A stretch of 64,000 bases of DNA from Bacillota bacterium (GCA_023400985.1 JAEXEN010000019.1:1954-65953); one strand, 5' to 3'; numbered from the stretch's first letter, positions 47,326 to 49,527 are shown. Made by a program: numbers and translations. Notes: generated by a model not told the origin, from the sequence alone.

Positions 47326-47354
47326 TTGACATTTCCCGATTTGACATATAAAAT
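47326..47354 (+). promoter_or_regulatory. Candidate promoter of the arsR-hgcAB-arsC operon
   Basis: TTGACA, 17 nt, TAAAAT. The direct repeats TCATATTGA(C/A) and TTGACAT occur twice across the promoter. Confidence 0.45.
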
Positions 47355-47389
47355 AATCATATTGAAGTTGTTCGATTTGAGGTGCGGGT

Positions 47390-47725
47390 ATGGAAGAATA
47401 TGCGGAGCATACAAAGGTATTCAAGGCGCTGGGCGATCCCAAAAGAGCCAGAATCGCAGATATGCTCTCCTGCGGCGAGCTTTGCGCCTGCAGGATTTTA
47501 GAGAAATTTGCGTTGTCTCAATCCACGCTGTCCCATCACATGAAAATCCTCTGCGAATGCGGGCTTGTCAAAAGCAGGGAGCAAGGCAAATGGACCTATT
47601 ACTCTCTGAACGCGGATACCGTCAACAAGACAAAGCGGTTTTTTGACGCCATCACGACCGATAAGGAAAACTGCATCTGCAAGGAAGATGCGTGCTGCCG
47701 CAAGGGACGTGATGAAAATGAATAG
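47390..47725 (+). CDS. arsR: ArsR/SmtB-family metalloregulator
   Basis: 'LGDPKRARIADMLSCGELCACRILEKF..SQSTLSHHMKIL' with an ELCxC alpha-3 thiol site, plus a Cys-rich tail 'CICKEDACC'. Confidence 0.85.
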   Translation: MEEYAEHTKVFKALGDPKRARIADMLSCGELCACRILEKFALSQSTLSHHMKILCECGLVKSREQGKWTYYSLNADTVNKTKRFFDAITTDKENCICKEDACCRKGRDENE

Positions 47726-48806
47726 CACGAGGCCGCGCTGTTGTTCGGGCGGCGGTTGCTGCGCCGAAGAATCTATTACGCCGCATAGCGAAAAGGATAC
47801 ATGGGTAACGGGTGATATCCATACGCCCCGGGGCCTCGTTCCCGCGGTTTCAACAAGCCTGAATTTTAAGGATGTTCTCGGAGCCTGGAAAGCGCGTTGG
47901 GGTATAGGCCGGATGAATTATAAGATCAGTCCGGGGCTTTACGCCGTCGGCAAGCCCGATCACGCGTCCCCCGTGCTGGTCAGCGCGAACTATAAGTTGA
48001 CGTTTGACACCCTGCGAAAAGAGCTTTCGGGGTTGAATTGCTGGATTTTGATACTCGATACAAAGGGTATCAACGTTTGGTGCGCCGCCGGTAAAGGCAC
48101 ATTCGGCACCAATGAGCTGGTACGCCGTATATCGATAATAGGGCTATCTAAGATCGTATCGCACAGGACGCTGGTTTTGCCGCAGCTTGGCGCGCCCGGC
48201 GTGAGCGCCCATGCAATAATAAGACGGACAGGGTTCTCCGTGGTTTACGGTCCTGTGCGGGCAAAGGATATAAGGGCATTTCTCGATTCGGGCTTTCAGG
48301 CCACGGAAGAAATGCGCGCGGTAAAATTTACGGCATGGGACAGGTTGGTCCTCACGCCTATGGAACTGGCGGCAGCCGCAAAAACTTCCTTGATGGTTTT
48401 CGGCGTTTTGTTTCTTACCAACCTGTTTGCATCAAGACCTTTCGGGTTCGCGGATCTCATCGCGTATGCGGGCGCTGTGGTAACGGGAACCGTTCTTACG
48501 CCCCTGCTCCTTCCCTTCATTCCCGGCAGGGCGTTTGCATGGAAAGGCTGGCTTTTGGGGCTGTGCTGGACGCTGGGCTTTGTTTGGCTGAACGGTTGGT
48601 TTACCTCTGATACTTTGCTTCTTGCCATAGGTTATCTATTGGTGCTGCCGTCCTTGTCGGCATATCTGGCGATGAATTTTACAGGCTCGTCAACGTATAC
48701 TTCTTTTTCCGGCGTTATCAAGGAAATGAAGGCGGCGGTGCCGCTCATCGCTCTTTCATGCACCGCGGGAATTGTGCTGGTGCTCATACGGAGCCTATCG
48801 GCTTAA
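47712..48806 (+). CDS. hgcA: HgcA, the corrinoid protein of the mercury-methylation pair
   Basis: Diagnostic cap-helix motif 'GINVWCAAGKGTFG' in a CFeSP-like domain, followed by a C-terminal domain of about 5 TM helices. The ATG overlaps the arsR stop. Confidence 0.85.
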   Translation: MKMNSTRPRCCSGGGCCAEESITPHSEKDTWVTGDIHTPRGLVPAVSTSLNFKDVLGAWKARWGIGRMNYKISPGLYAVGKPDHASPVLVSANYKLTFDTLRKELSGLNCWILILDTKGINVWCAAGKGTFGTNELVRRISIIGLSKIVSHRTLVLPQLGAPGVSAHAIIRRTGFSVVYGPVRAKDIRAFLDSGFQATEEMRAVKFTAWDRLVLTPMELAAAAKTSLMVFGVLFLTNLFASRPFGFADLIAYAGAVVTGTVLTPLLLPFIPGRAFAWKGWLLGLCWTLGFVWLNGWFTSDTLLLAIGYLLVLPSLSAYLAMNFTGSSTYTSFSGVIKEMKAAVPLIALSCTAGIVLVLIRSLSA

Positions 48807-48818
48807 TAGGAGGGCGTT

Positions 48819-49112
48819 ATGATACATAAATACTTGAAAAATGTTGCAACGCTTTGGCTGTCGGAGGAAAAATGCATCGGCTGCGGAAGATGCGCGGAGG
48901 TCTGTCCTCACGGAATATTCAAGATGGACGAAGGAAAAGCGCGGATCAAGGACAAAGACCTGTGCATGGAGTGCGGCGCTTGCGCGATAAATTGCCCCGT
49001 AAACGCTATTGCTGTTGACGCCGGGGTGGGATGCGCCTCCGCCGTGATCATGGGCTGGCTCACCGGAAGAGAACCGAGCTGCGATTGTTCAGGCGGCGGG
49101 GAATGCTGCTGA
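48819..49112 (+). CDS. hgcB: HgcB, 2x[4Fe-4S] ferredoxin partner of HgcA
   Basis: 'CIGCGRCAEVCP' and the diagnostic 'CMECGACAINCP'. The C-terminal tail ends in vicinal Cys 'GGGECC'. Confidence 0.85.
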   Translation: MIHKYLKNVATLWLSEEKCIGCGRCAEVCPHGIFKMDEGKARIKDKDLCMECGACAINCPVNAIAVDAGVGCASAVIMGWLTGREPSCDCSGGGECC

Positions 49113-49131
49113 AAATGGAGGGTGTGCTTTT

Positions 49132-49527
49132 ATGACAAAGGTTGCCTTTATTTGTGTCCATAACGCTTGCCGCAGCCAGATCGCGGAGGCTCTCGGAAAG
49201 CGCCTCGCCGGCGATGTGTTTGAAAGCTATTCGGCGGGAACGAAAGTTAAACCGCAGATCGACCGGGATGCCGTCCGGTTGATAAAGCGGCTTTATGGGA
49301 TCGATATGGAAGAAACGCAGCGGCCCAAGCTGCTTTGCGAAATTCCCCCGGTCGATGTTATCGTTACGATGGGCTGCGATGTCGAGTGCCCATACCTCCC
49401 GTCCAGACACAGAGAGGATTGGGAACTGGACGACCCGACGGGGAAAAGCGACGATACGTTTATAAAGATCATAGAGCAGATCGAAAAAAATGTTTTATCG
49501 CTCAAAGAAAGGCTCGCTTCCTTGTAA
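49132..49527 (+). CDS. arsC: LMW-PTP-family (thioredoxin-coupled type) arsenate reductase
   Basis: P-loop 'FICVHNACRSQ' (CX5R-S) and a distal Cys pair 'GCDVECPYLP', as in pI258-type ArsC. Confidence 0.75.
   Translation: MTKVAFICVHNACRSQIAEALGKRLAGDVFESYSAGTKVKPQIDRDAVRLIKRLYGIDMEETQRPKLLCEIPPVDVIVTMGCDVECPYLPSRHREDWELDDPTGKSDDTFIKIIEQIEKNVLSLKERLASL

Follow-up and report, generated by a model that had tools for sequence, protein, structure and literature searches.

Among the arsenic resistance operons of Firmicutes, the arsR-acr3(arsB)-arsC arrangement is well known, for example from pI258 of Staphylococcus aureus and the skin element of Bacillus subtilis. A variant in which the mercury methylation genes hgcA and hgcB follow the regulator, arsR-hgcA-hgcB-arsC, is found in a 64,000-nt stretch of DNA from a Bacillota bacterium (GCA_023400985.1 JAEXEN010000019.1:1954-65953), called the window below, in whose positions coordinates are given unless another contig is named. 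It is likely, with a probability of about 0.72 judged from sequence comparison, that a genuine hgcAB pair is here embedded in, and controlled by, a canonical Firmicutes-type ars operon. A preliminary description of this DNA had proposed that hgcAB is wired into an arsenic-type sensor/reductase operon, which is supported by hidden Markov model (HMM) matches, by acr3 genes in relatives and by an operator common to plain ars operons. With the classical operons the locus has in common a CxC-type ArsR, an apparently autoregulated promoter, a three-cysteine reductase of the low-molecular-weight protein tyrosine phosphatase (LMW-PTP) type and, ancestrally, Acr3; it differs from them in the insertion of hgcAB after arsR and in the missing pump. 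The window reductase is nearer to ArsC1' of Corynebacterium glutamicum, with its Cys-x3-Cys resolving pair, than to the pI258 ArsC (Cys82/Cys89), and it scores below the cutoff of the pI258-family HMM.

Co-location of hgcAB with arsR, acr3 and arsC has been published since 2020, and the locus is nothing new in principle. In these reports, hgcAB of metagenome-assembled genomes (MAGs) is flanked by acr3, arsC, arsM and arsR (McDaniel, 2020, mSystems, Fig. 6), an association of hgcAB with ars genes is described in MAGs (ISME Commun, 2023), and arsR, acr3 and arsC stand beside expressed hgcA (Environ Sci Technol, 2025). In a lake metatranscriptome, lower hgcA expression is seen where arsR is present (Environ Sci Technol, 2025). 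The published MAG neighbourhoods resemble the window in that arsR and an arsenate reductase, there of the thioredoxin or glutaredoxin type, directly flank hgcAB, together with a permease for arsenite efflux (McDaniel, 2020; ISME Commun, 2023; Environ Sci Technol, 2025). In Pseudodesulfovibrio mercurii ND132 and P. hydrargyri BerOc1, as in the window, hgcA is immediately preceded by a co-oriented ArsR/SmtB gene (Goni-Urriza, 2020; Gionfriddo, 2022/23). The upstream arsR of ND132 is co-transcribed with hgcAB and expression responds to arsenic, and a possible evolutionary link between ars and hgc genes is discussed explicitly (Gionfriddo, 2022, bioRxiv; 2023, AEM). The phyla listed in the same work as carrying arsR-hgcAB outside the Desulfovibrionaceae exclude Firmicutes. 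ND132 has no other ars genes beside hgcAB, whereas in the window arsR overlaps hgcA, arsC is present and acr3 was present ancestrally. Relative to the accessible text of the published work, the additions made here are the promoter and operator common to plain ars operons, the Clostridia-type cassette order, the recurrent decay of acr3 together with its precise deletion in the window, and a cysteine leader common to HgcA and a DUF2703 protein.

The hgcAB pair and its control region

Four co-oriented, tightly spaced genes occupy 47390-49527, as seen in both the listing of open reading frames (ORFs) and the raw sequence (Table 1). On NF040863 (HgcA_corrinoid), whose cutoff is 275, HgcA scores 488.7 bits; the match runs from position 1 to 323 of the 325 in the profile and spans the C-terminal membrane domain end to end. 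HgcB, encoded directly downstream, reaches 134.3 bits on NF040864 (HgcB_ferredoxin), for which the cutoff is 99. The two calls made earlier, HgcA from its cap-helix motif and HgcB from two CX2CX2CX3CP clusters and an ECC end, are thereby borne out by motif as well as by profile. Residues 119-132 of HgcA read GINVWCAAGKGTFG and include Cys124, and the cap-helix from N121 to K128 is invariant in 22/22 aligned relatives. A Kyte-Doolittle scan marks four clear hydrophobic blocks at 217-240, 244-272, 297-322 and 338-364, with room for a fifth; about five helices would be expected of an HgcA membrane domain. The protein belongs to a Clostridia-type clade, with matches at 74-97% identity. In HgcB the clusters read CIGCGRCAEVCP and CMECGACAINCP, their cysteines extending over C19-C29 and C49-C59, and Cys72 stands in the string GVGCA, an arrangement that agrees with the HgcB features described by Cooper (2020). 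From this family membership, Hg(II) methylation by the encoded HgcAB would be expected. An alternative hgcA start, TTG at 47643, was rejected, as relatives align from an M-K-M-S start overlapping the arsR stop.

Table 1. Features of the arsR-hgcA-hgcB-arsC locus, in window positions
Feature	Position	Strand	Description
putative ArsR operator 1	47321..47344	+	TCATATTGACATTTCCCGATTTGA; overlaps -35 box; imperfect dyad TCATAT-N12-ATTTGA
sigma-70-type promoter	47326..47354	+	TTGACA, 17-nt spacer, TAAAAT; 11/12 consensus positions; best match in 46600-50000
putative ArsR operator 2	47357..47380	+	TCATATTGAAGTTGTTCGATTTGA; between -10 box and arsR ribosome-binding site
arsR	47390..47725	+	111 aa ArsR/SmtB metalloregulator; alpha-3 GELCAC (Cys32, Cys34, plus Cys28); C-terminal CxC...CC tail
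hgcA	47712..48806	+	364 aa corrinoid methyltransferase; N-terminal Cys cluster C10, C11, C16, C17; cap-helix NVWCAAGK; C-terminal membrane domain
hgcB	48819..49112	+	97 aa, 2x[4Fe-4S] ferredoxin; extra conserved Cys72; tail C88-x-C90...C96-C97
deletion scar	49113..49135	+	acr3-type spacer and ribosome-binding site fused at ATGA to arsC start; 1053 bp gone
arsC	49132..49527	+	131 aa LMW-PTP-type arsenate reductase, probably thioredoxin-coupled; P-loop C8-x5-R14, Cys82, Cys86, DDP

The close packing that the preliminary description had claimed is confirmed by the ORF listing. The hgcA ATG at 47712 lies within the 3' end of arsR, which it overlaps by 14 nt, the gaps between hgcA and hgcB and between hgcB and arsC measure 12 and 19 nt, and a plausible Shine-Dalgarno sequence precedes each of the four genes. 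No convincing plus-strand terminator was found between 47390 and 49527. All four genes are intact and under purifying selection, the ratio of nonsynonymous to synonymous substitution rates (dN/dS) being 0.06-0.22 (hgcA 0.10-0.22; hgcB 0.06-0.14).

The regulator is an ArsR by both profiles compared (HTH_5, 49.4 bits against 22; NF033788, 96.3 bits against a cutoff of 55). Its GELCAC string, G29-E-L-C32-A-C34, stands just before the recognition helix, and the GE-x-C-x-C site is kept in 29/29 aligned hgcA-adjacent ArsRs. In the R773 ArsR, Cys32 and Cys34 are sufficient for As(III) binding. The ELCVC of a solved ArsR-family protein from Listeria (9t6t) aligns with the ELCAC of the window protein. 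Both the ELCxC thiol site and the Cys-rich tail noted earlier are thus present. The promoter earlier placed near 47326 is likewise there, and its position and sequence are kept in 11 genome relatives and in metagenome relatives, plain ars operons included. The two putative operators are copies of one 24-nt direct repeat, each an imperfect dyad, and the dyad core CAYATYGA-N8-GATTTG is kept in relatives with otherwise unrelated flanks. Perfect copies of this core occur twice in the window, both at the arsR promoter; a search with the same pattern revealed no further ArsR operator elsewhere in the window that would hint at a regulon. ArsR would be predicted to bind at both dyads.

The use of this regulator outside hgcAB loci was surveyed by scanning metagenomes with the ArsR protein as query, which yielded 80 loci. 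Where identity is 69-80%, the orthologue either stands in front of hgcA or heads a plain ars operon that lacks hgcAB, with the order arsR-DUF2703-acr3-arsD-arsA or arsR-acr3-arsC. Genes for an ArsP-family permease, an ArsM-like methyltransferase or a MIP channel come after the more distant relatives. At L117, a further ArsR relative, the gene that follows encodes a pyridine-nucleotide-disulfide oxidoreductase. The promoter with both dyads has an identical architecture in plain ars operons and in operons containing hgcAB. As the same type of ArsR, promoter and operator drive plain ars operons, hgcAB in the window appears to be under a genuine arsenic-type switch.

Independent evidence also identifies the reductase. 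The window protein matches LMWPc (PF01451) with 63.8 bits against 23.2 and has the P-loop C8-VHNAC-R14. Its 14 best matches among PDB sequences are all arsenate reductases, the top one being C. glutamicum ArsC1' (3t38, E = 2.5e-19), and window Cys8, Cys82 and Cys86 align with Cys88, Cys162 and Cys166 of that protein, residues which reportedly have the catalytic roles there. ArsC1' has been classed as thioredoxin-dependent (PMC6514093). Close homologues at 72-80% identity are common in Clostridia not known as methylators, such as Caproiciproducens and Lacrimispora, and are named 'arsenate reductase ArsC' in the source annotation. In related cassettes the orthologues directly follow acr3. A generic protein-tyrosine phosphatase, considered because the curated ArsC cutoffs are missed, was rejected on these grounds, namely the PDB matches, the Cys triad, the adjacency to acr3 and the source names.

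Gene order in relatives and the loss of acr3

Linkage between hgcAB and ars genes was examined in one genome per species, taking the best 80 HgcA matches of roughly at least 600 hgcA-positive species genomes. These 80 loci have HgcA identities of 44-83% and come from several phyla; they are weighted toward Firmicutes-type relatives and are not phylogenetically independent. Neighbouring genes within 5 kb of hgcA were classified by phmmer. A co-oriented arsR immediately precedes hgcA at 25/80 loci, and acr3 and/or an LMW-PTP arsC, always co-oriented, is present at 16/80. The arsC gene itself is found on the same strand at 10/80, seven of these ten having acr3 as well, and 49/80 loci are without any co-oriented ars gene in this range. 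The acr3 calls in relatives score 363-449 bits on TIGR00832 (cutoff 282.8). The orders encountered are arsR-hgcA-hgcB-acr3-arsC (6 loci), arsR-hgcA-hgcB-acr3 (5 loci), arsR-hgcA-hgcB-arsC (2 loci, plus the window) and, at 1 locus each, arsR-acr3-arsC-hgcA-hgcB (Desulfitobacterium sp. THU1), arsR-arsC-hgcA-hgcB (Desulfosporosinus sp. BG) and arsR-acr3-hgcA-hgcB. The preliminary description had asked for arsC and arsR co-occurrence to be counted and for arsC adjacency to be compared with chance; the frequencies exceed an expectation of <1% per locus for adjacency (1-2 copies in a 3-Mb genome), a back-of-envelope estimate and not a computed control. That the linkage survives many gene orders also argues against chance.

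Comparison with relatives indicates that arsR-hgcA-hgcB-acr3-arsC, the commonest ars-containing order among them, is the ancestral state for the window lineage. A sister contig, L081 (GCA_035562395.1), is colinear with the window at ~98% DNA identity, its sole difference being 1053 bp between hgcB and arsC. This stretch (L081:11415-12468) is an acr3 gene split by a 1-nt frameshift, with 90-93% protein identity to the acr3 product of another relative, L046. The alignment breaks at window 49132-49135, an ATGA that matches both L081 11415-11418 and 12468-12471, that is, the acr3 start and again the arsC start, and the 19-nt spacer before window arsC equals the hgcB-acr3 spacer of L046 and L081. 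From the spacer and the ATGA match it follows that the whole acr3 ORF was excised and arsC left behind the acr3 ribosome-binding site. It is likely that acr3 was first frameshifted, as in the sister contig, and then lost by the 1053-bp deletion between the two ATGA repeats. In the earlier idea of a hard-wired arsenate reductase, the adjacency to hgcB is thus secondary, as it results from this deletion. Purifying selection on hgcA, hgcB and arsC persists since the split from L081.

A misassembly is unlikely to explain why acr3 is missing, since a second assembly (L162, ENA ERZ24911329), 99.9% identical, has the same junction, although its sample may not be independent. No acr3 gene or remnant was found in the 64-kb window (tblastn best E = 0.8). 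In other cassettes, a short acr3 5' remnant (GIGFFEK...) lies between hgcB and arsC (L011:2250-2429), and acr3 is truncated to 143 aa beside an oppositely oriented 756-aa ORF (L003:4260-4691). Hence acr3 decays repeatedly in hgcAB cassettes, and hgcAB and arsC stay intact. In one cassette, hgcB and acr3 are separated by the gene of a 557-aa flavoprotein resembling CoA-disulfide reductases (L010:6445-8118); with 444.7 bits it stays under the TIGR03385 cutoff of 578.8, and it also has weak similarity to MerA.

HgcA proteins of 74-83% identity occur in MAGs labelled Christensenellaceae, Feifaniaceae, Acetivibrionales, Syntrophomonadaceae, Anaerovoracaceae, Desulfitobacteriia and Atribacteraceae. 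The GC content of the window cassette, 0.48-0.545, is slightly under that of its flanks, 0.55-0.63. This wide taxonomic spread and the lower GC suggest that the cassette moves horizontally.

Cysteine motifs and the surrounding region

Paired metal-binding cysteine motifs at the HgcA N-terminus and the HgcB C-terminus are an idea already in print. For HgcB, Cys73, Cys94 and Cys95 and a proposed role in Hg hand-over have been described (Cooper, 2020); the tail Cys pair of the window protein corresponds to Cys94/95 of ND132, and window Cys72 to Cys73. For HgcA, an N-terminal CU/CC motif has been likened to the CC terminus of HgcB (Haft, 2022, preprint). The window has the all-cysteine version of this motif, CCSGGGCC at residues 10-17, and selenocysteine is absent here; a selenocysteine-containing N-terminal extension was considered and is not applicable, the upstream DNA being arsR. 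The HgcB C-terminus reads CDCSGGGECC, and the preliminary description had taken CSGGG-x-CC as a shared motif of the two proteins. Both strings are indeed present and the cysteine arrangement is conserved: the tail pattern E-P-x-C-x-C, 3-8 residues, CC is widespread and kept across phyla, 62/79 HgcB tails end in CC and 54/79 have CxC, two Cys or more fall within the 30 residues preceding the conserved W-[VI]-x-G in 55/80 HgcA proteins, and the N-terminal consensus of close-clade HgcA is CCCSxxxCC. The literal motif is not conserved. GGG occurs in only 3/80 HgcA N-termini and 8/79 HgcB tails, which rules out CSGGG-x-CC as a conserved shared motif and makes it a local coincidence of Gly/Ser-rich linkers. 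Another candidate, that the HgcA Cys leader travels with arsR, was rejected on six loci (L012, L017, L019, L032, L036 and L038) that carry the leader without an upstream arsR.

Similar cysteine arrangements are seen in plain ars operons. A DUF2703 gene (129 bits) directly follows arsR in three of them (L083:~4320-4877, L085:~4320-4874 and L091:1518-2072). The encoded thioredoxin-like protein starts MKMS(N/K)CCCSSENCC, and both the overlap with the arsR stop and the CCCSxxxCC leader are the same as in Clostridia-type HgcA (window 47712-47765), the likeness stopping right after the Cys cluster. In addition, ArsD proteins of two such operons end in ...SGGGCCKGGCC or ...SGGCNCKGGCC (L083:5963-6334, L085:6570-6974), resembling the HgcB tail. 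These Gly/Cys tails fit a generic role in binding soft metals and metalloids, not one specific to HgcAB.

Directly upstream of the operon, on the same strand, 42901-46681 holds genes for a cobW-like GTPase, assigned to its family through the sister contig, and for an Fe-S/flavin oxidoreductase of 910 aa, as well as hypA (110 bits), a run that looks like a metal-chaperone neighbourhood. A strong plus-strand terminator follows hypA at 46699-46730, and a divergent Mor/CD3324-like gene upstream of the operon likewise ends in a strong terminator. Downstream, in the region 49528-50807, a gene combining DUF362 (183 bits) with a 2x[4Fe-4S] domain begins 134 nt 3' of arsC; among the contigs examined it is found at this place only in L081 and L162, both nearly identical to the window. 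An Rfam search revealed no cobalamin or other riboswitch near the cassette, the only matches being five tandem tRNA genes at 5961-6349 on the minus strand (62.6-67.1 bits each). Identical 22-nt strings at 24226-24247 and 26702-26723 are 2-mismatch chance matches to the operator pattern. They lie inside adjacent minus-strand ORFs of ~795 aa (23770-26160 and 26243-28630), which suggests that the two ORFs are tandem paralogues.

Regulation, rival explanations and meaning

Under ars-type control, ArsR dimers would occupy the two conserved dyads, which bracket the -35 and -10 boxes of a single strong promoter, and As(III) would bind Cys32 and Cys34, probably with Cys28, and release the repressor, as expected from the family. 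One mRNA would carry arsR-hgcA-hgcB-arsC, as the overlap, the short gaps and the lack of an internal terminator suggest. By homology, ArsC would reduce As(V) to As(III) through a Cys8, Cys82, Cys86 thiol cascade recycled by thioredoxin. HgcA reduced by HgcB would pass a methyl group from its corrinoid, which Cys124 ligates, on to a thiophilic metal, Hg(II) being the sole demonstrated substrate of the family, and in the literature model the HgcB tail cysteines, probably also the HgcA N-terminal cluster, would acquire and pass the metal.

Several observations weigh against this reading. The third R773-type thiol is missing from the window regulator, in which position 37 is Leu; that Cys28, conserved in the close clade, serves as third As(III) ligand instead is a guess. 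Between the window arsR and that of the sister contig (L081:9673-10008) there are five nonsynonymous and no synonymous differences (window residue first: T8I, S62G, N74D, R83Q and R107C), and Arg107 of the window replaces a conserved tail Cys of relatives (consensus ...CCKGCDENE). Constraint on ArsR may have been relaxed or altered after the loss of acr3, the counts being too few for a test. ArsR2 of ND132 has a four-Cys site (C47, C49, C86 and C88) and responds also to S-adenosylhomocysteine (SAH), whereas the window ArsR has the classical ELCxC, so that the ND132 experiment transfers only loosely. The reductase falls below the curated ArsC cutoffs (TIGR02691, 58.2 against 174.3; TIGR02689, 59.5 against 157.6; NF010053, 64.6 against 215), for which reason its label needed the independent support given above; acr3-adjacent orthologues of relatives also miss them (67-82 bits), which indicates that the subfamily is simply not covered by these models. 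No terminator was detected 3' of arsC, and the DUF362/Fer4 gene (49662-50807) might thus be co-transcribed. Finally, As(III) made by ArsC is harmful without Acr3 unless a pump is encoded elsewhere, and none is in the 64 kb.

Part of this evidence could be turned toward a regulator that is not chiefly an arsenic sensor, its effector being Hg(II), another thiophilic metal or SAH and its arsenic look historical. Several soft metals can be bound by Cys-rich sites of ArsR/SmtB proteins, SAH acts on ND132 ArsR2 in addition to arsenic, the window ArsR has changed as described and lost a tail Cys, and acr3 is absent from its operon. Such a regulator is nevertheless very unlikely here: the alpha-3 site is R773-like and not of the ND132 four-Cys kind, orthologues that share its operator stand before acr3, arsD, arsA, arsC, ArsP and the ArsM-like methyltransferase, and the protein, with 111 aa and matches to helix-turn-helix families only, has no SahR-type methyltransferase domain. 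The linkage may also be non-adaptive, a mobile two-gene hgcAB cassette having landed in a mobile and here decaying ars operon, with co-expression meaningless. The occurrence of HgcA at 74-83% identity across families, orders and even phyla suggests horizontal transfer, as the slightly lower cassette GC may do, and several lineages show acr3 decay by frameshift, truncation or deletion. This is judged unlikely, as the four remaining genes are intact with low dN/dS, the spacing is tight, starts are coupled, the deletion preserved the translation signals of arsC, and in several independent orders the genes still share one orientation behind a single arsR.

HgcAB could further be part of an arsenic pathway, induced by As(III) and transforming As(III) or a thiolated arsenical, with Hg methylation a side reaction and the Cys-rich tails passing on As(III) in the manner of the vicinal cysteine pairs of ArsD. 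The slot of hgcAB, flanked by arsR and acr3 and headed by an unmistakably ars-type promoter and operator, the linkage kept through at least six gene orders, the DUF2703 protein with the MKMS-x-CCCSxxxCC leader in the same slot of sister plain operons and the HgcB-like ArsD end ...SGGGCCKGGCC all agree with such a role, and an ND132 hgcAB knockout is more As(V)-sensitive than wild type (Gionfriddo, 2022/23). We regard it as distinctly unlikely, given that Hg(II) is the only demonstrated substrate, that 49/80 genome loci are without a co-oriented ars gene within 5 kb, that repeated acr3 loss with retention of hgcAB fits a coupled detoxification unit poorly, that Cys-rich tails bind any soft metal and that halomethane dehalogenation has also been proposed as the native function. 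The more specific form, in which HgcAB of this Clostridia-type lineage would be a functional part of an ars operon induced by As(III), with slot, operator and leader like those of DUF2703 and a native job in arsenic such as corrinoid-dependent As(III) methylation or the processing of a thiol-bound arsenical, Hg being a side reaction, is slightly more doubtful still. That HgcAB handles arsenic has already been put forward in the literature as a hypothesis.

What hgcAB natively does, and how it is regulated, matters for predicting environmental methylmercury production. With Clostridia-type hgcAB under the ArsR, promoter and operator of plain ars operons, as the preferred reading of an ars-controlled hgcAB pair holds, hgcAB expression should track arsenite exposure. 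The window with acr3 deleted, the sister contig with acr3 frameshifted and the relatives with acr3 intact form a natural experiment on the importance of the pump to the cassette. In addition, the compact four-gene operon with its defined putative operators is a convenient construct for probing the action of HgcAB on arsenic, and if the arsenic-handling reading were true, the cassette would be an unusually clean natural test system.

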